From: an uncultured Nitrososphaerota archaeon
Lineage (GTDB): Archaea; Thermoproteota; EX4484-205; JAAOZP01
Direction of reading: 5' to 3'
Assembly: GCA_964635675.1 (NCBI GenBank)
Contig: CAZWPT010000043.1
Coordinates: forward strand, 14,963 to 78,962
DNA length: 64,000 nt
Within the stretch, counting starts at the first letter, position 1. Each line of letters begins with the position of its first letter. A program made the position numbers and the translations under genes. The notes beneath the pieces were generated by a model that ran no database searches, was not told where the DNA came from, and worked only from the letters and a program-made list of their open reading frames with translations. This document shows positions 4,074 through 55,947 of the stretch, piece after piece.

Positions 4074-4792
4074 CACCATGCTTAGAACCTGCTTTTAGTG
4101 GCCCCAGAGGGCTTTGAAAGCTCTTCGTCAACCTATGGGAAACGCGGTGATGCTGAGTTTCTCGTTTCTACAAAAATTCCGAGAATTTAAACGAGTTTTA
4201 AACCTATTCCACAAGCCCCCAATAGAAACTACTTTTCCTCTGTTTTGCTTGTTTTAATGCTCTTCTCAGCAACATTTCTATACGAGGCCGATAGTTGGCT
4301 GCAAGTGTCACCTGTTTCCGCTTTCTAGCGCGCTAAAGCAAGAACGACGACACTCCAAGCTGTTCAAGTAGTTTCAGGTGAACAAAAAGAACTTTTCGGT
4401 TAAGTCGATTTGCCACATCATTTCTCTCGGATTTAAGAGAAAATCGCGCGCGCTAATTTCAGAAGCTTTGGAATTCTTTCGTATGGAAACATTATCGGAT
4501 TGTCTCCTATGAGGATGAAAGCTTTCTTCTGACTGAGATCGCTGGCGAAAACTTGCTCAATAAAATTACCGTGCTCCCTATCTATCCCCGAAGCCGCTAT
4601 GAGTCCAATATCGTTAAAGCCGTCCACTAGGAAATCGCGCGCTACCCTGATTCTGCCTATCTTTTCCTCAAAATCCGATTTCTGGTTTAAGAGTGGTCTT
4701 TTAACCATATTGCGGGCTTTCAGACGCTAATATCATATTTTCTCTATGACTGAGAAAATTTTATAAACAATTGTCTCAACAACTATTACATT

Positions 4793-6073
4793 ATGAAAGA
4801 AGCAAGGGTGAGAAGCTACATCGAAGACTGGTACACGAAAAATCTCCCACCCCTAGTGGAAAGAGAGCTCTCCGTAAAGCCGGTAAAAGACAAGGTTATT
4901 TCAATAGCAGGGCCTCGGAGGGCGGGTAAAACCTTCTATTTCTACCAGCTGATGAGGGGGAATAAGGAAAGCTGTCTCTACCTAGATTTTGAAGACTCCG
5001 CTTTGATAGACGTTAAGTTTGATGAGGTGCTGGATGTGATAAACCTCTTCACCGAAACAACTGGCAGGGTTCCAACGGATATCTTTCTAGACGAGGTTCA
5101 AAGGGTAGAGAAATGGGAAACCATAGTAAGAACCCTCTTGAATAGAGGGGGTTATAGAATTTTTGCTACGGGCTCCTCCTCCAAGCTCTTAAGCAGGGAA
5201 GTGGCTACTCAACTGAGGGGGAGGTCTTTAACCTATCTTCTGTTCGGCTTTTCGTTCAGAGAATTTCTAAAAGCCAAAGGAGTTGAGTTGGAGGAAGTCC
5301 TAAGCGGGCTGGAGAAAGCAAAAATAAGGAACTTGTTGAGAGAATTCCTTGAATTCGGCAGCTTTCCGGAAATCGTGTTGAAGGAGGATAAGGAGAAGAT
5401 TTTGAAGGAGTATCAGGACACGATTTTCTTTAAAGACTTTGTGGAAAGACATGAACTTAAAAGCCTTGAAGTGGCAAAGTTCGTTTTTTCTCAAGTACTT
5501 CAAAGTTTCTCGCACGAGTTTAGCGTAAATAGGCTTGTAAACCTGCTTAAGTCGAACAGTATAAGAATGGGGAAAAACACCGTCTACGATTACGTTGAAA
5601 AATTGCAGGATACGCTGGCCGTTTTCTTTGTTAAAAAATACTCGGAAAAAATCTCTCTGAGGGAATCTTGGCCCAAGAAGGTTTACATATGCGATACGGG
5701 GATTTCAAAGGCAGTCCGGTTTTCAGAGGATTTTGGAAGGCTGATGGAGAACATTGTATTTATAGAAGAGATGAGGAAGATAAATGATAATCCTTTGCTT
5801 GAAATCTTTTACTGGAAGGATCGTCAACAAAATGAGGTGGATTTCGTCTTGAAGGAGGGTCAAAAAATTAAACAACTCATCCAGGTTACTTATGCCAATG
5901 GTAGAGATGAAATCGAGAGACGCGAGATAAGGGCGTTGCTTAAGGCCGGTGTAGAACTCAGATGCAAAGATTTACTCGTAGTAACTTGGGGTTATGATGA
6001 TGAATTAGAAATTGAAAATGAAAAAATTAAATTCACTCCACTATGGAAGTGGTTGATTACGCGCAGAGAATAA
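4793..6073 (+). CDS. AAA+ ATPase (COG1373; AAA_14 + DUF4143)
   Basis: Walker A GPRRAGKT, Walker B FLDEVQ, ATGSS, 'PKKVYICDTG', 'EVDFV', C-term 'PLWKWL'. Confidence 0.9.
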   Translation: MKEARVRSYIEDWYTKNLPPLVERELSVKPVKDKVISIAGPRRAGKTFYFYQLMRGNKESCLYLDFEDSALIDVKFDEVLDVINLFTETTGRVPTDIFLDEVQRVEKWETIVRTLLNRGGYRIFATGSSSKLLSREVATQLRGRSLTYLLFGFSFREFLKAKGVELEEVLSGLEKAKIRNLLREFLEFGSFPEIVLKEDKEKILKEYQDTIFFKDFVERHELKSLEVAKFVFSQVLQSFSHEFSVNRLVNLLKSNSIRMGKNTVYDYVEKLQDTLAVFFVKKYSEKISLRESWPKKVYICDTGISKAVRFSEDFGRLMENIVFIEEMRKINDNPLLEIFYWKDRQQNEVDFVLKEGQKIKQLIQVTYANGRDEIERREIRALLKAGVELRCKDLLVVTWGYDDELEIENEKIKFTPLWKWLITRRE

Positions 6074-9856: not shown

Positions 9857-12653
9857 CCGTTATGAAATGGAGCTCAACCACTTCTTCGACACGCACCAAG
9901 ATCCCGATGTTCACCTCCCCATCTATATACCACACGAATACTCTTTTAACTTGATGAACACGGCATATCTCTAGAAGCTTGTTAAGAAACGGCTGGATTT
10001 CAACCCAGTCCTCTTCATAAACGTATCTAGTTTTCCCGTAATGGAAGGAGACGTCAGGGTTGACAGCTGTAGGCACGAGTACTGTTAAGCCTGCTTCCTC
10101 AAACACCTCCACCAGTCTAGCAATCCTTTCCTCCTCACTTTTTTCAGGCGTTGGCGGAGGTATTTCGACTCCGGCGATTTTCGCTAGGAACGCTCTGAAG
10201 CTTTCTTCAACCGTGGAGCCCAGACCTACGTAGTATTCGCCGGTGAAGTCAGCCCCCACGGTCGCAATGGTTCCGAGCTGGGTTACAACACCGCCTCCGG
10301 GAGCCGTGTAAACCGGTATGAAGAAAACATCGTAGTCGCCAATCCTGTAGAAGATCTGGTTTCCCACGCGGGGATTTCGTAGAAGAGTTTTCAACGCGGC
10401 GTAATCCGGGTTTCTTTCCAATGCTTCGTTTATAGCGGTTGGGCCTAAAAGCTTGGTCTCCGCCTCAAGAGGCACCTTGTAGAAAAACATCTCGCCGGTG
10501 TGCGGATAGTCGTTTCTAACCACCATATATCCGGCAAGGTTTTCCCCCAATGCTCCCCTTAGCTCAAGCGACAGTATTCCTATAAACTCCAGTTTTTCGA
10601 ACCCATGGGGCTGGGCCATGATGTAATAAGTGTCTAGACCACTGGGCACGACGAAGAACTCCTTGGCTGCGATGAAGACTGAGGGGTCGGTGACATGGTA
10701 GAAATTGTACATGGAGATCCTCCACTCGAAGAGTTCCTCAGGATACCTGATCTGAGTCTTAAGCCATTCAGGCACATTCGTGGAAACGTATTCGCTGTAA
10801 ACAAGTTTGAATAGTTGGCTGAAATAGTCTTCACCGGTAATTATCAGCCGGATATCCCCATGGTAGATATCAATTAAAGCATACCCCACAAGCCTTCCCA
10901 AGTAGTTTCCACGGCTCCACGGCACTTTCCCAGCGTCTAGAAACACCATGAGGGGCATTATCCAGAAGGTTTGTCTACCATCTGTAACCGGCCACATATC
11001 CACGCGTTGCCCCCCGATTTCATACTGGAAGTAGGGGAAGAGCAGCTGCATGCGTTCATAGACATCCCTGTACCTGAGAACCCTCATCGTTGTCGTAGGA
11101 TATGAAAGGAGAAAATTGGGCTCGAAGAACCAGCTTAGAGGCGGAGAGATGTCTACTCCGCCCTTACCATCGTAGAAGTAGCCCCCTACTTCATCGCTCA
11201 CTGTTCTTCCAACGGGGTATGCGACCCATGTTTTCTGAAACAGCCCTCCCTCTCCATAGTATATTCTCCTCTGTGGAAAGAACTTAGCGGCATCAATGAT
11301 TCTTCCCGTGTGAGCATCAAGCATGAGGAAGCCGTTAGGCACATGCGTGTAAACGAAATGGGTGGCGTACCATCGGTCTTCCTGCCGGACAGTCTGAGGC
11401 AAAATAAGATCCATTGAAGCACTCCAGTAGAGCGTCCCGTTGAAACGGAGGATGTCTGCATCCGCGAAATCTATATAGGGTATCAAACCTATCTCCGGTC
11501 TTAATTTGTCAAATGAGGCTTGCTGGTCCCAGAGGCGTACTTTTTCCAACATCCCCTTATTTTTCTTAACATAGTCATCGATCTGACTGGGATGAATGGA
11601 TGATAAGCCAAACTCATACGGCATCTCTATTATCTTGTCCAGCTCTGCAAGATGCCTGTTCACGGAAATGGCTTGAGAAATATACGGGCCAAGCATCTCA
11701 AGCTTCCTCACGTTCGCAATAGTGTTGTTAAACACGATTATGGAGCCGACGGCTAAAGCGATCATGACCAGAATAAGTGGGCGGAGGTATAGTTGTCGTC
11801 CTCGATACCACGGATACACCCCCATCGCGTCTTTCCTCTTATCCATGAGAGCAAAAACAGCTAGAGCAACACTAGCAATGGCAAGCCCCAAAACCAGGTA
11901 CTTGGTATTATAATCAATGAAGGAAGTGAAGAAGCCGGTAAACATAAACCATGAAAGAAAGACTGCGGCAAGGGCCTGTATAGTCAGCGTAACCCTTCTT
12001 GGGCTGGACATGCTTAAACCCCAGACATAAGTCGAGACTAAGGGCGAAACTATGCGGACAATGTGAGTCGCCGCCACGAGTAGTATTAAGCGCATCCAGA
12101 GGGCGCGGAGCAATGGCGGAGCCAGAAGCGTCAGCATCGGGATTAAAGGTATAACGTTTTCTTCAGCGTAGGCCATATTCATCGGGGGAGTATAGAAGGG
12201 AAGACTGAACAGCCTAGGGAATGCTTCGATATTCGGGTTCCAGCCCATCATGATGGCGTTAACGGCCATGCCGAACGTTATGTTCGCAAAGAAGACCATT
12301 CCGAGCAAAACTTTCGTAACCTGCCAGACTAGAAACTTCAGGGGCCGCATTTTGAAGCCTTCGAAGTCAGGCAATACTGGAGGAGCAGTTTCACCTACAC
12401 TTAACGAACGTATTAGCTTAATCGCAAGACTGATGAACCACCAGGTTATTGATCTTCTGTTTTTAAAATCAACCCTAAACAGGGCCAGTGAAGCAAGAAC
12501 AAGCCCGCTCAGCAGGCCGAAGTATAATGGTCTGAAGAATAGTTCTCCGAATTCCGAGAGATTAAGCCAAAAAACTATGATTTCACGCCCGAGAAAAACA
12601 ATTAGAACTGTAATAACAACTAGAATTAAGAGTAGCTGATACATTAAGCGCAT
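9843..12653 (-). CDS. UPF0182 family membrane protein
   Basis: N-terminal TM bundle, 'VRLWD', 'HFVYTH', 'RIYYGE', 'QIRYPEELF', 'YHVTDP..F' motifs. Confidence 0.85.
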   Translation of the reverse strand: MRLMYQLLLILVVITVLIVFLGREIIVFWLNLSEFGELFFRPLYFGLLSGLVLASLALFRVDFKNRRSITWWFISLAIKLIRSLSVGETAPPVLPDFEGFKMRPLKFLVWQVTKVLLGMVFFANITFGMAVNAIMMGWNPNIEAFPRLFSLPFYTPPMNMAYAEENVIPLIPMLTLLAPPLLRALWMRLILLVAATHIVRIVSPLVSTYVWGLSMSSPRRVTLTIQALAAVFLSWFMFTGFFTSFIDYNTKYLVLGLAIASVALAVFALMDKRKDAMGVYPWYRGRQLYLRPLILVMIALAVGSIIVFNNTIANVRKLEMLGPYISQAISVNRHLAELDKIIEMPYEFGLSSIHPSQIDDYVKKNKGMLEKVRLWDQQASFDKLRPEIGLIPYIDFADADILRFNGTLYWSASMDLILPQTVRQEDRWYATHFVYTHVPNGFLMLDAHTGRIIDAAKFFPQRRIYYGEGGLFQKTWVAYPVGRTVSDEVGGYFYDGKGGVDISPPLSWFFEPNFLLSYPTTTMRVLRYRDVYERMQLLFPYFQYEIGGQRVDMWPVTDGRQTFWIMPLMVFLDAGKVPWSRGNYLGRLVGYALIDIYHGDIRLIITGEDYFSQLFKLVYSEYVSTNVPEWLKTQIRYPEELFEWRISMYNFYHVTDPSVFIAAKEFFVVPSGLDTYYIMAQPHGFEKLEFIGILSLELRGALGENLAGYMVVRNDYPHTGEMFFYKVPLEAETKLLGPTAINEALERNPDYAALKTLLRNPRVGNQIFYRIGDYDVFFIPVYTAPGGGVVTQLGTIATVGADFTGEYYVGLGSTVEESFRAFLAKIAGVEIPPPTPEKSEEERIARLVEVFEEAGLTVLVPTAVNPDVSFHYGKTRYVYEEDWVEIQPFLNKLLEICRVHQVKRVFVWYIDGEVNIGILVRVEEVVELHFITVELE

Positions 12654-12798: not shown

Positions 12799-13627
12799 CT
12801 AAAACGGTGCGAATACTCCGATGAACACGAGCCAAGCGAGTAGTGTTTTAGCCACTAGGCTTAGAATAATGTAGACTCTTTCGCCGTATAAGTAGTCTTT
12901 CCATCGTCCAACGCCTTTGTATTGAAGAACCATGTTTAAAGCGAAGATGTTGAAAACAATGAAGCATACGAAGAAAATTGCGTAAACAAATGCAGGCGGA
13001 TTCGTGCCCGTAGAAGTGATTGCTGAAACAAAATACGCGAACATTACAATCCATGGGACTCCCGGAAATACACCCGAGAATAAACGGTGTCCAATTCGTT
13101 TTCTCCGTGCTCTGATTTATCAACTCCATTAGATATCCAAACATGATCATCATTGCATTTAGCACAAAGATCATTACAAGTGACCAGAAATCCCAAACTC
13201 CAACAAAGGTTGCAATGAGCACGATCATTATTGAGCTGGAGAAAGCATATTCATACCAGCGGTAGGGGTTCATTCCTTTTTTCAAATTCTCAACATAGTC
13301 TTTGTTTTTTGGATAAGCGATTAAGAAATGGGCTAATGCTGAAATAAGCGGAAAAGAAGCAACCATCGCGTCCAAGTAACTTGCCGTGAAAAGTATTTGA
13401 GGGTTTGGCAAAACCTTGAAGGGCATCTGGCTAATGTCGAACTTCAAGTAGAACGTGTATACGGGTTGATTCCACTCCAATAGAACACCGAGAGACAACA
13501 TTAAAATGCCAGTTATCAGATGCAAAATGCCTGCTGCTATGTTTATACGTTTCAAGTGGCTAAATGAAATTGGCGATTTAGCAATTATCTCCCGTCTCTC
13601 TTTATAGTTCGTAAATAACCTATTCAA
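12799..13627 (-). pseudogene. heliorhodopsin, frameshifted near 13060
   Basis: 'NPYRWYEYAFSSSIMI' and retinal-lysine motif 'GERVYIILSLVAKTLLAW'; the two halves lie in different frames. Confidence 0.9.
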
Positions 13628-14801: not shown

Positions 14802-15748
14802 ATGAGTGGGAGGAAAACCATAAGTAGAAACGTTGTTTTCGCATTCCCCCCGCCGCCGCCTCCGGAGCATAAGACGGGAAGGGGGATTCTCATAGGCTTG
14901 GTTGTTTTCATCGTTTTGGAGAATATTCTCCTCGCTCTCTTTCTGATCAATTATTTCAAGCTCTCATCCTCTTACCAGAAGATGGAGGAGGGTTACCAGT
15001 CGCTTTACACAAGCTTCTCAAATCTCAGCTCGGCCTACATGTTCCTGATGGGGAATTACAGTGTTCTCAGGAGGGAACTCGATGTTGAGGCTGTTTTGAA
15101 GATTGGTAATAGCCTCCAATCGTATTATGATGTATTGAGGCAGATTAAGGGGTTGGACGGTACAAAGGAAAGTGCAAACCCGACCAAGGATCAGGTTATT
15201 TTCGCGGCGAGACTTGCGCAGCACGATCTTGGCAACCCATACTTGCCGGATGTGGAGGCCGAATTTGAAAGGATCACTGGGAGGCGGAGCTATGATATTG
15301 CGAGAAGTAAAATCAACGAGGTGCTTCTAATAATCGACTTGAGCGAGTCTGATCCGCCGGTTGTCAAGATTGGAAGGATACTGAACTTCACACGCAGGTA
15401 TATTCACTACGAGTACGAGGTTAACAATGTTTTCCGGGCTCCTGTTGAAACTCTGGGGTTGAGGTCTGGCGACTGCGATGATTATGCGATTCTTGTGCCT
15501 CGCTTTTCGAGGCGGTTGGAATCAACTCAGCCGTGGGATCGTTCAAGAATGCGACTGGAGCCTACCATTACATGGTGCTCGTCCATCTTGAGGAATTGCC
15601 GGGATACAGGTATTGGAGCTTCCCAGACCTGGCGAGATTCGGACTGACCAAGGGGAGATGGATAATAATCGAGCCTCAACTACCACTGGACCGCCAGGGA
15701 GATGAGCAGATTGGAAGGTGGACCCTATTAGCGGCGGCAGAGGTCTGA
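14802..15748 (+). pseudogene. membrane-anchored transglutaminase-like cysteine protease, 1-nt frameshift near 15497
   Basis: TM + coiled coil + 'PVETL..SGDCDDYAIL'; the H/E catalytic segment ('YHYMVLV', 'WIIIEPQ') is in the next frame. Confidence 0.75.
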
Positions 15749-15799
15749 CTCATCCCTGAAGAGAGTGGCACAGCTGACGCTTGCAGCATGTTAGACGTT

Positions 15800-15863
15800 A
15801 AAAAGTACGCTAAGGAATGAGGTGGACTGGCCGGAGGAGATAAGGCGTTTCCTAGAGGAGAAG
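15800..15863 (+). pseudogene. RHH/VapB-type antitoxin fragment
   Basis: 'EVDWPEEIRRFLEEK' resembles archaeal 'VNWSEEIRKFIEEK'; cut at AGCGCGCG. Confidence 0.55.
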
Positions 15864-15871
15864 CGCGCGTT

Positions 15872-15991
15872 TTGCGTTCAGATGCTAATATCTTATTTTT
15901 CTCTATGACTGAGAAAATTTATAAAAAATGTCTCAACAACTATTACATTATGAAGGAAGCGAGGGGAGAAGCTACATCGAAAATTGGTACA
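15872..15991 (+). repeat. diverged copy of the promoter and first ~14 codons of the AAA ATPase (4710-4835)
   Basis: near-identical 'tttctctatgactgagaaaattt...tgtctcaacaactattacattatgaa..agaagctacatcgaa..tggtaca'; both ends abut GCGCGC. Confidence 0.9.
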
Positions 15992-15997
15992 GCGCGC

Positions 15998-16290
15998 AGG
16001 GATCAATTGGTTTTCGATAATTTTCGAAAGACATGGCTCCGGGTGAGGCTAAGGGCCTGGTCGCAACTTTAACCAGGGTTTTCCTAATGGACGGCTTCAA
16101 TGTGATAGGCTGGAGAGATTTGAATCATCCGGCTGTACTCGATTTAGCTGTTGAAAACAATATTGCATTTCTACGATGCCTGCTACATCCTGCGAGCGCA
16201 ACCCTTAGGGTACCACTTTTAACTGAAGACGAGTAATTGAAACAGATCGCAGCTAAGTATACAAAAGTCTTGTCCTGGAAAGAATTCTGA
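15998..16290 (+). pseudogene. PIN/VapC toxin C-terminal fragment
   Basis: 'LDLAVENNIAF(fs)YDACYI...PLLTEDE*LKQIA'; begins at GCGCGC 15992-15997. Confidence 0.65.
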
Positions 16291-16372
16291 ACCGTATTAT
16301 GCCTTATAATTCTATTTCTTCATCCAGCGTTAAGAAAGCTTTTATTAGTGTGTTGGGAAAGGAAAACGCGTA

Positions 16373-17899
16373 ATGAAGCGTTTGGGGCTTGGCGTAGTGA
16401 ACATGCTGTTAACAGCATGTTCCGTTTTCCTTCTCCTCCTTATTCTATCTCCAGTAGAGATGTCTTTCGGAGAGCCTGATGGCGCTTCCACCCGTATCTA
16501 TGTGGATGTGCACGCGCTTCCGGCAGTCACATACGGCGATACTGTTCAGCTGACTGCCTACCTGTACGATTCGAAAAACAATCCTCTTCCACACCAGACA
16601 GTCAGGTTTCTCGTTAACGGAAGCCTGATGGGGACTGCGGTAACAGACTCCTTTGGAAGAGCCGTCTACACTATAGCCTCGATCCTTGACGCCGGAACTT
16701 ATCTTGTTCAAGCAGTCTTCCAGACTACTGAGAATTACAGCGGCTCCGTAGCCCAACCCACTGTTCTACTGGTTCAAAGGATGAAAACTATTGTCGACTT
16801 CACGTATACGTATGGGATGAAAACGGGTGCTGAGACGCTGATATGTGCTGTTCTAAGGGACGGTAGGCAGAACGCTCTGCCGGGCCAGACAATAAGCTTC
16901 TACCTTGACGATGCTCTAATAGGGACCTCTGTCACAGACCAGACTGGAACAGCCTGCATACGATACACTCCGAGAACCGGGGGCACGTATATGCTTAAAG
17001 CAGTGTTTTCAGGCTCTAGAAACTACGAGTGTTCTTCAAGCACCAGCGCTGTTGTAATAACCGGCTTCTCTTTAACGGTATTGACTCCATTCGCCAACGC
17101 GCCAATCGTCAGGATTAACCAGGACCAGTTTACGACCGACGAGTATGGCAGGGTGAAGACTTATGTTAACCCTGGAACATACAGCGTAACGGTTCAAGAA
17201 TACTATAACATGTCTCCCAGCGTTAGAGCACAGTTCATCCAGTGGACTGATGGAACTCAAAAGACATCCATGTCTGTTAATGTTTCATCAGATTTAACGC
17301 TTTCAGCCAAGTATAAGCAGCAATACTTGGTCAGCATTGTTTTTCGAGACGCAGCCGGCATGCGAAACATAGTCCCCGACTCCGTAACGCTAGTAGGCCC
17401 AGACGGTGTTTCCAGAACGCTAACCGGCTATTCGTCGCTGTGGCTGGATGAAGGACGGTGGATAGTGTCCAGCATCCTTTGGCGGGGCGTTTCAGTCGAA
17501 CTGGACGCTTACAGGACTTTCTGGGTTGACTCTCCCACGGAACATGCTTTTCGCTGCGCAATATATGATGTAAGCATAACCGTACAAGACATCCTGGGTT
17601 TTAAGACACCCTGGGCGCGCGTAAGGATGATGCTTCCTAACGGTGATGTTCTCGAGCAGAGCACGGATAGGACTGGTAAGACTATTTTCACCTCCGTCCC
17701 TAGGGGAAGATTCTACGTTTCAGTCACCAGCATGAATATCACAACTTCGTTGGATGGCGACGCCTCGATCAATAATGATTTAACAGTGGTTATTCTAGTG
17801 TCAAACGCCACGCTGATCGTAAGTATTCTGATCATCGTAACTCTAATATGCGTTGCCTACCTAAAAATGAGAAGGAGCAGGGGGCGCGCCAAGCCTTAA
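16373..17899 (+). CDS. surface protein with Ig-like / carboxypeptidase-regulatory-like repeats and C-terminal TM anchor
   Basis: signal peptide, repeated 'LP.QT..F..G...GT.VTD..G.A' units, C-terminal TM and basic tail. Confidence 0.75.
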   Translation: MKRLGLGVVNMLLTACSVFLLLLILSPVEMSFGEPDGASTRIYVDVHALPAVTYGDTVQLTAYLYDSKNNPLPHQTVRFLVNGSLMGTAVTDSFGRAVYTIASILDAGTYLVQAVFQTTENYSGSVAQPTVLLVQRMKTIVDFTYTYGMKTGAETLICAVLRDGRQNALPGQTISFYLDDALIGTSVTDQTGTACIRYTPRTGGTYMLKAVFSGSRNYECSSSTSAVVITGFSLTVLTPFANAPIVRINQDQFTTDEYGRVKTYVNPGTYSVTVQEYYNMSPSVRAQFIQWTDGTQKTSMSVNVSSDLTLSAKYKQQYLVSIVFRDAAGMRNIVPDSVTLVGPDGVSRTLTGYSSLWLDEGRWIVSSILWRGVSVELDAYRTFWVDSPTEHAFRCAIYDVSITVQDILGFKTPWARVRMMLPNGDVLEQSTDRTGKTIFTSVPRGRFYVSVTSMNITTSLDGDASINNDLTVVILVSNATLIVSILIIVTLICVAYLKMRRSRGRAKP

Positions 17900-20765: not shown

Positions 20766-20951
20766 GCGCGCGCAGAAGATGCTAAAAATTAGAGCAAAAA
20801 TCGTAGTACCTGCTGCAAATCTCGCCTCGAGCCCAAATAACAACACTAGGGCTGGTACTATTATCGTGCCTCCAGCTAACCCCACAATGGACAAGATAGA
20901 AGGCGAAGCTGCAGCGAGCATAGCAAGCAGTATTGCGATGCTGATCTCCAT
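20766..20951 (-). pseudogene. TSUP/TauE-SafE family transporter N-terminal fragment
   Basis: 'SIVGLAGGTIIVPAL..FGL....AAGT'; truncated exactly at GCGCGCGC 20766-20773. Confidence 0.75.
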
Positions 20952-21189
20952 GCTCTTTGCGCTACAACCGACATAGTCTTATTAAAAGTTTTATTTCAAA
21001 ACGACATGCTTTTAAGAATATCTGGTAATGTAGTTGTGTGTGGCACGCGCGCTTATGTTGTCAACGCGCGATTAACAATTCTGATATCTGGTGGCATTTA
21101 TAACTAATAAATGTCATAAAAATTTATTTTATATTTTCAGGTTCCCATTTACGCCGTTCCGGTCTGCTGTGTCTCAGCTGAGGTTGGGG

Positions 21190-22849: not shown

Positions 22850-23163
22850 CCTGTGTAGACTACTTCATCCAATCCTCTGAAGTGTTCCTCTCTAGCAATT
22901 ATTTTAGCCTTCAGGATTCTTCCAGTGGCCAGCATGATTCCGTTTGTTAGAATAGGCTTTTTAAGCCCCCTGCCTTCGCGTTCTCAGAAAGCTCTCAGTA
23001 GGCTCCCGCCGCCAAGTTCAACTCCGTATCAATCTCCTTTACGGTACTGTTCATCTAAATGAAGCCTTTCAATAACCTCGTCGTAGCTTTTCAAGCCCAT
23101 ACGTTTCTTTAATGCTTCTAACGATCTTAGGTTGCAGCGCTTAACCTGTATGGTGCGCGTCAT
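22850..23163 (-). pseudogene. decayed, internally deleted paralog of the VapBC pair at 42401-42999
   Basis: reverse strand gives 'MTRTIQVKR.NLRSLEALKKRMGLKSYDEVIERL' followed by '..TVKEID...EHFRGLDEVVY'. Confidence 0.85.
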
Positions 23164-23330
23164 ACTACCATAAATTATAAGTTTTTTCGCTGGCACTGGT
23201 AATGAGCAGACTGTTTACGAGGGTGGAAAAGCTTACGCCCAAACTCGTGAAAAAGTGTGCTGGCGCGTGTGCTTAACTATGAGGACGCGTGCTGGCTGCT
23301 TATTGCACGCTATTGTTCTAATGTTTAAAT

Positions 23331-25433: not shown

Positions 25434-25672
25434 AATCGTTTGCAATCTTGTAGCGCGCGCTATGATGCTCGAAAAAATAGAATTAAACAAATAACTTAAG
25501 ACTAGGAAGTGTACTTCTCGGGTCGGTTTAGGTAGAGGGGCTGGGTAGAAAGCTATTAGATGAAGCAAGGGTTTTCGCCTCTTTCTTGGAAAAGGAAGAG
25601 CGCGTCCATTGGCTGTATCTCAAGTTGGAGAAAGGTTTAAGTATTCCAACTAAGGTATAACTTTTGGAAACC

Positions 25673-25945
25673 ATGGTTGAACTCAGGGTGAAAGTTGGAG
25701 AAAAAGGGCAGATACTCATCCCGAAAGTGTTTAGAGACAGGTATGGGATAGTGGAGGGAGACAAGGTTTCGATTGAACCCACTTCCGAAGGCATCTTGAT
25801 AAGGGGAAAACCCTCTCCAGAGGAAATAATGAAAAGGCTTGAGGAGCATGTTGAAAAGATTAGAAGGATGGGGGTTTCCGGCCCGAAGCTGGGAGACCTA
25901 AGTAGGGTCTATTTGGAAATGGAGTTCGAGGAGAATACTAGTTGA
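25673..25945 (+). CDS. AbrB family antitoxin
   Basis: 'VKVGEKGQILIPKVFR'. Confidence 0.9.
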   Translation: MVELRVKVGEKGQILIPKVFRDRYGIVEGDKVSIEPTSEGILIRGKPSPEEIMKRLEEHVEKIRRMGVSGPKLGDLSRVYLEMEFEENTS

Positions 25946-26355
25946 AAGCCTTTCTAGATTCTTGCTTCCTCATATACTTGAACGCTATGGTGGATGATGA
26001 AAGAAGGCTAGTAGAAGAGCTGTTCAGAAGACTTCTTGAGGAACAGCTGTTTACGAACATGCTTGTGGTAGATGAGGTGCTTTACGTATCGAGAAAGTAC
26101 CGAGTGTCTTATGAGACAACTTTAGATTTCTTGAAAAACATGGTGCTGCCCTACGCTGAAGTCCTGCCCGTTGAAGAGGAGGATTTTAAGCCTGCTGAAA
26201 AATACTTGTTAAAGTACGGTTTGAAACCCTCTGACGCTATACACTTGGCAACGATGGAGAAAGCCGGAGTAAGAAATATAGTTTCTGAAGACAGGGAGCT
26301 CGACAAGGTTAAGGAGATTAAAAGAATCTGGGTTACTTCCAATGTTGAAAAATAG
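25942..26355 (+). CDS. vapC: VapC family PIN toxin
   Basis: 'FLDS', 'PSDAIHLAT', 'VSED'. Confidence 0.9.
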   Translation: MKAFLDSCFLIYLNAMVDDERRLVEELFRRLLEEQLFTNMLVVDEVLYVSRKYRVSYETTLDFLKNMVLPYAEVLPVEEEDFKPAEKYLLKYGLKPSDAIHLATMEKAGVRNIVSEDRELDKVKEIKRIWVTSNVEK

Positions 26356-26474
26356 TGATTATTCTTCAGGAAGCCAGTGTTTCCACGCATACTTTTCCGG
26401 TAATATTGGTGAAGGCGTGGAACATGCAGGAGTCTAGAAGAAAGGCTCTGAAGAGGATTGGGCGCGTCGTTGAA

Positions 26475-36647: not shown

Positions 36648-36935
36648 GTGGATAAGAATCAAAGGGATTTTCAGGATTTTGAGCCTCCCAGGCTTGTTGA
36701 AAGAGACCTCAGGGTTGAGCCCGTTCTTCCAGTGAGGAGAACCATATCGATAATTGGACCTAGGAGAGCCGGTAAGGCTTTCCTCATGTTTCAAACCATA
36801 AGGGGTCTGCTGGAGGGCAACGTGGGTAAGAGCAGGATGCTTTATGTTAATCTTGAAAGCGATCTTTTAATCGGCGCGCGCTGCGCTGAAACAATCAGGT
36901 TCACACCATTATGGAAATGGTTGCTCGAGCAATAA
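36648..36935 (+). pseudogene. COG1373 AAA ATPase remnant: N-terminus fused to extreme C-terminus
   Basis: GPRRAGK...'LYVNLESDLLIG' | GCGCGCTGCGCTG | 'TIRFTPLWKWL'; about 330 aa missing relative to 4793-6073. Confidence 0.85.
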
Positions 36936-42349: not shown

Positions 42350-42368
42350 AGCGCGCGCTCAGAAAAAA

Positions 42369-42396
42369 CTTATAAGCTATAGCTTATAAGCTATAG
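42369..42396. promoter_or_regulatory. TATA/operator palindrome of VapBC
   Basis: perfect 22-bp palindrome CTTATAAGCTATAGCTTATAAG, also a 14-bp tandem repeat. Confidence 0.65.
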
Positions 42397-42400
42397 CGAT

Positions 42401-42601
42401 ATGACGAGCACCATACAGGTGAAACGCCGCAACCTAAGATTGTTAGAAGCGTTAAAGAAACGCATGGGTTTGAAAAGCTACGACGAGGTTATTGAAAGGC
42501 TTCTCGAAGAGAAAGCCGGCATACCGGCCGACATGTTTGGAGTAGACAAGGGGAGGGTTTCAAGGTTTACTGAGAAGGATAGGATGGAGGACAGGGATTG
42601 A
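42401..42601 (+). CDS. vapB: VapB-type antitoxin
   Basis: 'TIQV...L..LKK..G.KSYDEVIERL'; overlaps the PIN gene. Confidence 0.85.
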   Translation: MTSTIQVKRRNLRLLEALKKRMGLKSYDEVIERLLEEKAGIPADMFGVDKGRVSRFTEKDRMEDRD

Positions 42602-43998: not shown

Positions 43999-44387
43999 CA
44001 GACAACTTATTAATTATCTTAAAGACCCCATTTTTTAACGAATAGCGCGCGCTAAAACAGCGTTACTCAAGTGCAAGCAGTATCTCTTTCTACGTCAGCC
44101 AGGCGGCGTAAAGCAAGGCAGCCTAAATATCCTCCGAGGAAAGGCTCAGCATTCTTCAACCGAATCCTTAGCGCGCGCTCCATAGATGTTTAAATACTAT
44201 TTTCATAATATACTGACTATTAGGAATTGACTGCCCTGATTAAAGAACTTGTCTACGATTATCTTCTGCTGGTTAACATCGCGCGCTATCGCTGACTTTA
44301 TGGCTTCTATGCTTACCATATTTATCAACGCAAACTTTCTCTTAGGGGCTTTTTCATTCAAGAAGAACGGTCTTTCGACTAAATTAA

Positions 44388-44540
44388 CTAGTCAAGAAAC
44401 GTTTTTGGACGATTAGCAAGCAGCCTAACCGCATCGTAAACCATCTTCTCGTTAACAGCACCAGTGCAAACAAGTTTCCCAGAAGCAAATAATAATATAA
44501 CTACATCAGGATCATGCATACGATATATTAAGACTATCTT
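44388..44540 (-). pseudogene. tbp: TATA-binding protein C-terminal fragment
   Basis: 'LIYRMHDPDVVILLFASGKLVCTGA' is the TBP signature; starts at AGCGCT 44543-44548. Confidence 0.85.
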
Positions 44541-44546
44541 TAAGCG

Positions 44547-44979: not shown

Positions 44980-45260
44980 GAAATAGGGTCTAGGGAACAA
45001 AATATTTAAGCATTACCAAAGGCTCCGGTAGAAAGGCTTCTAAGAGTGCAAGTAGTATCTATTTCTCCGTCAGCCTAAGTGCGTAGAGAATAGTGGTCTT
45101 ACGCGCGCTAAGCAGTAGCACTCTGGGTTTTGTCATTATAAGGCAGGGTAGCTGACTTTCTTCTTAGTTTCCCAATCCTCTCAGCCATTTAGAATGGTTC
45201 TGAAGATTTTTTTAACCATCAGCAAGGCTTAAAAGAATCAGATGTTGATTTTGTTAAGGC

Positions 45261-45763: not shown

Positions 45764-45998
45764 ATGGTTGAGAGGGGTCATAGGCCGGAGTATAGGCAGC
45801 TCTACTTCAAGGCGAGCGAGATAAGGAGCATACTGGGGGATGGAGAGTGTTTCTTCGAAGTCATGGTTAGGGGTAAAGCCGTCGTGAAGAAGTAGAATCC
45901 TGAGCGTCAACGCCACCAGTACATGGTTTCAAGCTGGGTCGGGGAGCCGGGGATGGAGGTGGAGGTAGAGTTGAAGAGGCTCAGCGATAAGGAGGTTA
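45764..45998 (+). pseudogene. unidentified gene fragment with internal stop, truncated at the palindrome
   Basis: coding-like frame 'MVERGHRPEYRQLYF...VVKK*NP...ELKRLSDKEV' running into AGCGCGCGCT. Confidence 0.4.
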
Positions 45999-46019
45999 GC
46001 GCGCGCTAACCTCCTTATC
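45986..46019. repeat. perfect 34-bp palindrome centred on AGCGCGCGCT
   Basis: GATAAGGAGGTTAGCGC|GCGCTAACCTCCTTATC. Confidence 0.95.
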
Positions 46020-46101: not shown

Positions 46102-46195
46102 TGCCCCGAGCGGGATTTGAACCCGCGACCCCCAGCTTTCTTCAATCATAAATGTTCGAAAGGCTGGTATGCTTGCCGGGCTACACTATCGGGGC
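46102..46195 (-). tRNA. tRNA-Glu(TTC) with 19-nt intron at canonical 37/38 position (46138-46156)
   Basis: GCCCCGA acceptor stem, CCAGC/GCTGG anticodon stem with CTTTCG|A loop, GGTTCAAATCC T-arm. Confidence 0.92.
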
Positions 46196-55571: not shown

Positions 55572-55947
55572 TTAAACCTTTTTCCCTCCCCGAATACTTC
55601 CTCCTTTAAAAATAGTTTTAAACAGGTTTAAAGCCGGGTTGCGCGACGTGGCGCGCGATGCTTAGCCGAATCCTTGCCGGCGATTTTGAGGCCCGTCGGC
55701 GTGATGGCTCAACGTTTAACGCGGCTGGTTCTCTCCGCGTCGGGGAGGATGCTGCAGCCTAAGGAGACGCATAACTCCAAATCGGGACCCGGCTAGACTA
55801 TGCTCCATAAAGCCTGTTGAATTGAAACAAACCATGGTAGCGCGCGCTACAGTATGTTGCACACGGTTGCCGGCGTGACTTCAACTCGCGGCAAAGCTTT
55901 ATATAGGTATTACTGAAACAGGGAAAAGTAATACCGGGTGATTCGGG

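Follow-up and report, generated by a model that had tools for sequence, protein, structure and literature searches.

What places a short run of alternating G and C exactly where fragments of different genes meet? The question arises at positions 15750-16294 of a 64,000-nt stretch of archaeal DNA (the window), where a first-pass annotation had described three unrelated fragments stitched together by GCGCGC and had taken the motif to be foreign to the parental sequence. The window is C43:14963-78962 of G000, a metagenome bin of 2.16 Mb in 65 contigs with 49% G+C. Its archaeal genes include RadA, a primase small-subunit-like protein and heliorhodopsin, it is rich in toxin-antitoxin pairs of the VapBC, HicAB, RelB/ParE and MNT/HEPN types, and a tRNA at 46102-46195 is its sole match in an Rfam scan. 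The closest homologues of its RadA, at 84-92% amino-acid identity, carry the labels Candidatus Brockarchaeota, Thermoproteota, Crenarchaeota and 'Thaumarchaeota'. Set beside its relatives, the window is a mosaic.

Anatomy of the composite locus

Read from left to right, the locus consists of a VapB-like remnant ending in GAGGAGAA, a first run A-GCGCGCG-T (15862-15870; AGCGCGCGCT minus one base), a copied piece of an AAA gene, a second run A-GCGCGC-A (15991-15998), 27 nt (15999-16025) that align loosely to a PIN gene in MAFFT, and a PIN-like remnant. The VapB-like, AAA and VapC-like pieces are as had been claimed, and the two joints coincide exactly with A-GCGCGC(G). The VapB-like piece (15750-15861, plus strand; RHH/CcdA-like antitoxin) is decayed; its last 53 nt (15810-15862) match C15:11857-11805 at 90.6% over 53 nt. 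The matching C15 stretch forms the middle part of an intact VapB-like gene, which overlaps a PIN-like gene downstream. The central piece (15874-15991, plus strand) is a captured copy, 118 nt long, that spans the promoter and the initial 13 codons of an AAA_14/DUF4143 ATPase gene. Its parent-like stretch (4716-4835, plus strand) comprises the promoter and 5' end of an intact gene at 4793-6073, and the two agree at 90% over 121 BLASTN columns; the ~120-bp copy that had been reported is thus real and, as had been cautioned, a diverged paralog instead of an identical duplicate. The same piece is 89% identical to the AAA locus of G007 and 87% identical to that of G013. A BLASTN search of 15650-16400 against the whole of G000 returned two matches only, the AAA parent and the C15 gene.

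The third piece (16026-16294, plus strand) is the 3' part of a PIN-like (VapC-like) toxin gene without a paralogue in G000. It is 87% identical to G013, where BLAST homology begins at 16026, and 79% identical to G002; its translation shares 65% identity with residues 57-119 of a G002 protein of 137 aa. The label 'VapC fragment' hangs on the end-to-end Pfam PIN match of that G002 protein, which is sub-threshold (E 0.0011, 20 bits, cut-off 23.6). Because it carries two compensating frameshifts, with the FYDA motif region removed, and a premature stop, the remnant is a pseudogene. In G002 the full-length pair, an RHH/CcdA-like protein (PF07362, E 1.7e-5) followed by the 137-aa protein, is linked by an ATGA overlap; the window holds only broken remnants of both genes. 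Since G002 and C15 have such gene pairs, the simplest account takes the flanking remnants as opposite ends of one VapBC-type cassette in decay, and the locus as a single cassette, downstream of a transglutaminase-like gene, with an AAA piece captured inside. To call the three pieces unrelated was therefore an overstatement.

Chimeric contigs, joined at a GC-rich palindrome during assembly or library preparation, could produce such a structure, and the material invites the suspicion: all genomes compared are metagenome bins, the relatives are not mutually independent, and the mosaic state of the window is itself what chimerism would give. Against this, runs of 8-10 bases are far below assembly word length, the motif is an intergenic one peculiar to the lineage and recurs in relatives that were assembled independently, and the first joint together with the transition from AAA copy to GCGCGC is reproduced in Logan contigs from four runs and four studies. 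Run X1, probably from the source sample itself and hence not independent, has contigs that bridge both joints. Contigs of X2-X4, from other studies and ~96% identical to the window, contain joint 1, the AAA copy and then GCGCGC; their joint 1 is a decayed form, with C>T at 15868 and one extra T. Beyond joint 2, other populations carry different DNA at the same joint; the X2-X4 contigs do not cover window positions 16052-16286, which is no evidence of absence there. We regard an artefact as extremely improbable.

Origin of the runs at the joints

If the runs had been native to the pieces, full-length homologues should carry them. All four full-length VapB homologues (G010, G005, G016 and the C15 gene of G000) continue past the break with GAGG(A/C)GAAAGT and have no run, and all three AAA homologues (the window parent, G007 and G013) are free of GCGCGC at either end of the copied stretch. 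In the MAFFT alignment, homology stops at GGTACA, after which the parent reads CGAAAA and the copy GCGCGC, as the first-pass annotation had noted. We looked for a closer full-length homologue flanked by GCGCGC on both sides and found none. The claim that the motif is not parental accordingly holds for the VapB and AAA pieces and is uncertain for the PIN piece: the closest PIN homologue, in G013, reads AACGCGCTTTGG at about the aligned break, where the alignment is weak, so that on the right side of joint 2 part of the run may be native. The chance that two given breakpoints would each fall within 2 nt of a run is ~4.5e-5 (39 runs in 64 kb).

A palindrome family confined to part of one genus

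Runs of this kind are found throughout the genome and the lineage; the locus is no isolated oddity. The window contains GCGCGC 54 times, a count that none of 100 shuffles reached (14.6 expected), and the whole of G000 has 429 runs, 245 of them in the 13% of the genome outside long ORFs. The intergenic logo reads T-A-(GC)3-4-T-A, with nothing conserved beyond two positions on either side; A...T flanks accompany 8-nt runs in 86% and 80% of cases and are not universal at joints. With 70 copies, AGCGCGCGCT is the most frequent 10-mer of G000. Its density is 40-fold higher between genes than in ORFs, and that of AGCGCGCT 12-fold higher; AGCGCT and the control palindromes TGCGCGCA, GGCGCGCC, ACGCGCGT and TCGCGCGA have no comparable intergenic enrichment in G000. 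The motif is thus a lineage-specific palindrome family, [T]A(GC)3-4T[A]. The 10-mer is abundant in seven genus members (118 copies in G016, 88 in G007, 70 in G000, 33 in G008, 32 in G006, 18 in G005 and 16 in G009). Among the other ten, three have 6, 3 and 3 copies (G010 has 3) and seven, including G002, have none. In 44 genomes outside the genus it occurs at the level of a reversed-pattern control. Viral contigs also contain TTAGCGCGCGCTAA (36 loci); those with multiple copies are bacterial proviruses of 56-71% GC without similarity to G000, and we therefore treat them as unrelated.

Such a distribution could reflect a functional signal, an operator, insulator or terminator element placed at the ends of gene cassettes, with homology blocks ending there because the cassettes do. 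The strong intergenic bias fits, as does the occurrence of runs in all intergenic types, often 0-40 nt past a gene's 3' end and seldom within 40 nt upstream of a start codon. The motif also has the size of a typical binding site for a protein dimer, a palindrome of 8-12 bp. It sits less well with such a signal that only part of one genus has the motif, that its flanks are not conserved, and that an extended hairpin is missing: 243 of 429 runs have no paired flank base, and only 5 of 429 have at least five extra pairs. The sites of G000 are scattered over 45 contigs, and runs cluster in islands, at 0.8-1.3 per kb on C43, C15 and C2.

Homology breaks at palindromes

Ends of homology and palindromes coincide well beyond the composite locus. 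When loci of G007 and G016 were compared with G000, alignments spanned 3 of 30 A(GC)nT sites with at least three GC units, against 109 of 252 random intergenic positions of the same loci (Fisher p 2.7e-4), and an alignment ended within 8 nt of 9 of the 30 sites against 14 of the 252 controls (Fisher p 1.5e-4). Within the window, 14 of 92 alignment ends lay no more than 8 nt from a run (BLASTN against 20 relative loci). Self-BLAST of G000 put 17 of 572 paralogous-segment ends within 3 nt of one, compared with 1.2% of intergenic positions. The run at a break is often present in one genome only.

The VapB remnant itself was cut more than once. Its G007 orthologue ends 39 nt earlier, at the equivalent of window position 15823, abutting AGCGCGCGCTA; the palindrome there is AGCGCGCGCT, and beyond AGCGCGCGCTA G007 continues with the block found at window position 21119. 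The window has no palindrome at the position of the G007 cut and none where the adjoining G007 block starts. The cuts differ, and we therefore conclude that there were two separate truncations, each with its own palindrome. Other truncated genes in the window meet the motif in the same manner. A second 5' fragment of an AAA_14 gene (36648-36881, plus strand) is cut exactly at GCGCGCGC (36874-36881). The 5' fragment of a TauE-like gene (20766-20951, minus strand) ends at GCGCGCGC (20766-20773), and the RadA block of two relatives ends 6-8 nt to the left of that run. Direct contact with truncated genes is not what a regulatory signal would lead one to expect.

Whole cassettes have palindromic edges too. 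At 25453-25460, GCGCGCGC forms the left edge of a VapBC cassette (25461-26403); G016 lacks this cassette and has a lone GCGCGC where the window has 33 nt, GCGCGCGC and the whole cassette. A further GCGCGCGC (42351-42358) sits at the exact boundary between a block that G016 also has and a VapBC cassette common to G002 and G005, and in this region G016 has (GC)8 in place of ~1.1 kb of the window. The distance from the palindrome to the cassette at 25461 varies among its copies (0, 26 and ~90 nt), which again is awkward for a signal of fixed function. G002, with zero 10-mers, has its cassette edges at the same places as G000, so cassette exchange does not need the palindrome.

These edges bring in the main rival to the reading that we favour, namely a pre-existing target that is duplicated on insertion. 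A recombinase, integrase or nuclease would cut A(GC)nT, insertions would duplicate the site or deletions would run from one site to another, and gene fragments would adjoin sites only because cassettes and fragments land there. The lone GCGCGC of G016 opposite site plus cassette is what a target predicts, as are the clustering of sites in islands and the modules and fragments flanked by a site on both sides. A target leaves the origin of new sites unexplained, however, and it accords poorly with the same VapB remnant having been cut at different points in G007 and G000, each with its own site. Weighing this with the evidence of the following sections, we judge a pre-existing target somewhat unlikely as the explanation.

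Fragments between paired palindromes

Spacing between runs in G000 is irregular apart from an excess of gaps of 100-139 nt (21 against 2.5 expected). Of the segments of 30-400 nt between runs, 14 of 75 have a copy elsewhere in G000, against 44 of 750 intergenic, length-matched controls (p 3e-4), and the parents of 12 of those 14 have no run within 40 nt of the ends of homology. Four copies extend from run to run: window 4334-4445 (112 nt, a copy of C43:6273-6379), the AAA piece at 15874-15991, C44:1919-2046 (an internal piece of a C20 gene) and C52:13152-13242 (the 3' end of a C43 gene). All four parents lack a run within 70 nt. A tRNA gene copy at C38:2517-2723 is flanked by runs as well. Parents without a site speak against a pre-existing target as the source of captured fragments. 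Identity between the bracketed copies and their parents is 77-90%, roughly what separates species of the genus, so that relatives may have been the donors. A ~100-nt 'repeat' at 44427-44530 was considered as an attC-like site; it is in fact a small protein-coding gene family with third-codon variation.

The same architecture recurs near the AAA parent (4328-4642), where GCGCGC (4328-4333), the copy (4334-4445), GCGCGCGC (4446-4453), 183 nt and GCGCGC (4637-4642) follow one another. Opposite the run, 183 nt and run at 4446/4637, G007 has one run, and the locus shows a 13/14 direct repeat, AGRAAATCGCGCGC. We note that this one-site/two-site polymorphism favours a duplicated target: a site-duplicating insertion or a deletion between repeats fits it at least as well as the marking of a joint does.

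Indels and decay in colinear DNA

Palindromes also differ between relatives where the surrounding DNA is colinear. The copy of AGCGCGCGCT at 44170-44179 is a clean 10-nt indel relative to G016 (CCTT^CC), and at 55839-55848 AGCGCGCGCT takes the place of TTCG in G016, the flanks being conserved. The window has GCGC at 55651 in place of ~48 nt of G016, and at C27:83218 AGCGCGCGCT stands opposite TG in G007. Each of these four differences may be a gain or a loss; the empty sites read CCTT^CC, GGT-TTCG-ACAG and AAAT-TG-TAGAC. Clean 10-nt indels in colinear DNA are expected neither of a target for cassette insertion nor of a functional signal. By a rough tally of ~13 spanning comparisons, about one third of sites are intact, one third carry point changes and one third are absent. 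The decay looks neutral, with no sign of constraint. Since the motif comes and goes within the genus, lies at variable distance from the same cassette, touches truncated genes and decays in this neutral-looking way, a regulatory role is clearly unlikely.

Search for an enzyme or element

No enzyme or template able to add or cut such a sequence emerged among the families searched in the genus, whose bins are 57-94% complete; gene-family negatives here mean 'not found', not 'absent'. Ku (PF02735) was found in none of the 17 genus genomes. The two genomes with a C5 methyltransferase (PF00145), G001 and G003, are free of 10-mers, and the enzyme was found in none of the 7 motif-rich genomes. Cas1 (PF01867) was rejected as a candidate: it turned up in 5 of the 7 motif-rich and 2 of the 10 motif-poor genomes (7 of 17 in all) but not in G000, a link that is too weak and that genome size confounds. 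A multi-copy Zn-ribbon tyrosine recombinase (with PF00589) was rejected as well; it was not found in G007 or G016 and had 6 matches in G010, which has 3 motifs. That this recombinase does not track the motif weakens the case for a pre-existing target, as does the scarcity of element ends abutting sites, with 3 trivial paralogue pairs among 857 flanks in G000 and no pair among 315 flanks in 263 kb of G007, G016 and G006.

The form TA-(GC)n-TA, with its head-to-head symmetry and variable n, would also suit the excision footprint of a cut-and-paste transposon with (A)GCGC...GCGC(T) termini, TA being a target duplication of the Tc1/IS630-like type. Deletions and fusions mediated by the element, followed by its excision, would leave a footprint at joints, and eukaryotic cut-and-paste elements do leave footprints with flanking deletions and filler DNA. 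The element itself did not appear, however. Inverted ends starting with GCGC were not found within 6 kb of each other in G000, and under relaxed rules 2.8 Mb of DNA, relatives included, gave six candidates that were all the motif itself. Neither DDE_3 (PF13358, IS630/Tc1-like) nor the Y1 transposase (Y1_Tnp PF01797; RAYT type) was found in any of the 17 genus genomes, and a control search for the latter was positive in 6 of 14 references. Nor do the empty sites listed above show the single TA that such a transposon should leave behind. We therefore consider excision footprints a very improbable origin.

Discussion

We propose that the palindromes are the joint marks of a lineage-specific process of DNA breakage and rejoining, a reading to which we give slightly less than even confidence. 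Any joining event, be it the sealing of a break, the closure of a deletion, the capture of a loose fragment or the swap of a cassette, would yield a joint that carries the palindrome. Both DNA ends would receive or keep the same short GC-rich end, approximately 5'-AGCGC, and two like ends would then be joined head to head, with (GC)n varying according to their overlap. The symmetry of the palindrome suggests this shared end and this orientation. We infer that the palindrome is made at the joining step and did not exist beforehand; a tail on each end is the putative form of this making, and a single enzyme system would be responsible. Creation at the joining step is the most economical way to account at once for solitary indels, sealed deletions, bracketed fragments and cassette edges. 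A stronger version, that a Brockarchaeota-type hot-spring subclade possesses an undescribed end-joining and fragment-capture system which writes an A(GC)3-4T linker into every joint, we consider doubtful.

To our knowledge, little is established about DNA end joining in such archaea. Were the palindrome written at joining, it would be a natural barcode of double-strand-break repair and cassette exchange in uncultured archaea in which Ku was not found. Rates and partners of rearrangement could then be read straight from metagenomes, and a new enzyme activity would be implied, which might add tails of defined sequence to DNA ends or might cut and ligate at a site of 8-10 bp. If a capture system is at work, these genomes would record past breaks, deletions, cassette swaps and captured pieces of ~100-130 bp of own or foreign DNA, much as in a loose, repeat-bracketed capture of fragments without CRISPR machinery. 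Even if it served solely as a hot spot of recombination, the motif would be shorter than any other cassette-boundary element known to us. The palindrome also accounts for the mosaic toxin-antitoxin islands of these genomes.

Comparison with known systems

We found no description of the motif in archaea in open-access papers and bioRxiv, and the description of the Brockarchaeota has no mention of palindrom-, repeat, transpos- or GCGC. Among known motifs, HIP1 (GCGATCGC) of cyanobacteria is an 8-bp, GC-rich perfect palindrome, and no other word is as over-represented in its genomes. It is dispersed in coding DNA and has a link to methyltransferases, whereas the archaeal motif is 12-40-fold intergenic and a C5 methyltransferase was not found in the motif-rich genomes. 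A CRISPR array has repeats of 24-48 nt, regular spacers and a leader; the archaeal units are 8-10 bp, irregularly spaced with a broad mode at 100-139 nt, and dispersed over 45 contigs. Cutting and ligation of the BssHII type (GCGCGC) would require the site at the joined ends of the parents, which do not have it (VapB 4/4, AAA 3/3).

The likeness to integrons, archaeal ones included, lies in arrays of small cassettes, many of them toxin-antitoxin modules, with a repeated boundary site and shuffling between relatives. In integrons, IntI acts on folded attC sites of ~60-140 nt with paired R/L boxes, and most cassettes lack a promoter and point the same way. The archaeal site has 8-10 bp and no conserved or paired flanks, its cassettes have their own promoters and both orientations, random gene fragments are bracketed too, and the tyrosine recombinase family that was found does not follow the motif. 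Eukaryotic repair joints offer another parallel: filler DNA and telomere-repeat insertions consist of a fixed repeat or a copied fragment and are clean against empty sites. Like them, the archaeal joints carry a short repeat or a copied piece exactly where the ends meet; unlike them, they occur in a genus in which Ku was not found (0/17), whereas the eukaryotic insertions depend on telomerase or on NHEJ/SDSA.

The nearest analogues appear to be the invasive, recombinogenic GC-rich palindromes of fungal mitochondria, with REP/BIME elements also close. REP/BIME elements are likewise abundant, intergenic, lineage-specific palindromes and hot spots of insertion and rearrangement. REPs, however, are imperfect hairpins of ~20-40 nt with a conserved head, served by RAYT transposases and targeted by insertion sequences; the archaeal motif has no extended pairing, no Y1 transposase was found (0/17 genomes), and in G000 and the 263 kb of relatives examined element ends do not abut it. 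For the mitochondrial palindromes, passages of PMC4478555 present the GC clusters of yeast mitochondrial DNA (GC42, for example) as short GC-rich palindromic, recombinogenic units and cite work titled 'Preferential recombination between GC clusters', and a passage of PMC7218506 names GC clusters, the PstI palindromes of Neurospora and MUSE1, an ultra-short 11-bp element of Podospora mitochondria. As far as these passages go, the archaeal palindromes resemble the fungal ones in being multi-copy, intergenic, optional between close relatives and productive of length mutations (PMC4478555, PMC7218506). GC clusters are organellar hairpins of 30-50 nt with a dinucleotide target duplication, whereas the archaeal units are chromosomal, 8-10 bp long and without hairpin arms. 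Compared with the fungal mitochondrial elements as those passages describe them, the archaeal palindromes stand out in that their pairs bracket copied fragments of other genes.

Structural alleles of the 15300-16700 locus

Comparison of window positions 15300-16700 with contigs from sequencing runs of other studies (X2-X4) revealed two departures from the arrangement in the window. X3, representing one other population, carries ~2.4 kb of differing DNA between the captured AAA-gene copy and position 16301, an interval occupied in the window by a 0.3-kb PIN remnant. X4 also has a contig whose match ends at 15823, the position at which the VapB remnant is cut in the orthologous locus of the congeneric bin G007. 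Multiple structural alleles of this locus therefore coexist in hot springs.

A further displaced cassette fragment probably lies elsewhere in the window, where positions 23061-23181 and 42383-42503 form an inverted repeat of 121 nt (88%). One arm is the beginning of the VapB gene at 42401, and it is the other that we read as displaced. Separately, this hot-spring archaeal bin carries a heliorhodopsin gene (12848-13627, - strand; PF18761, E 1.7e-53).

Repeats, palindromes and small genes around cassettes

Repeats of ~33 nt (agtgcaag.agtatct.tttct.cgtcagcc; 44068-44100 and 45047-45080) adjoin GC palindromes on either side of a HicAB cassette. The multi-copy stretch of ~100 nt at 44427-44545 (- strand) resembled a cassette-boundary repeat at first, a reading that was rejected: it belongs to a small ORF family whose copies differ at third codon positions. 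Its product of ~45-60 aa carries a TBP-fold-like 'LFASGKLVCTGA' motif; seven copies occur in L023 (a locus of the relative G002, contig C26) and one in locus L097 near 11240-11392, and toxin-antitoxin cassettes flank copies genus-wide.

At 45985-46018 lies a perfect 34-nt palindrome with TTAGCGCGCGCTAA in its centre, the only motif copy in the source genome (G000) with long paired arms. An intron-sized tRNA gene lies ~85 nt away, on the - strand at 46102-46195. A tRNA gene at C38:2517-2723 of G000, flanked by a GC palindrome on each side, has a 99% identical counterpart at C13:9162-9254.

Recombinases and proviral sequences

G000 encodes at least four paralogous tyrosine recombinases with an InsA-like zinc ribbon at the N-terminus (C63:7371-8720, C25:429-1829, C5:11641-12792, C29:46366-47372). 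Searches for this family gave six matches in the relative G010 and none in G007 or G016.

We also examined five bacterial, high-GC (62-71% GC) IMG/VR proviruses (L084, L088, L089, L068, L085), in which the box caTTAGCGCGCGCTAAtccc occurs 3-4 times per 36 kb, some copies directly after terminator-like hairpins. Kinship with the archaeal motif was rejected, the two being unrelated; the proviral box has the appearance of an operator or promoter element of phages.
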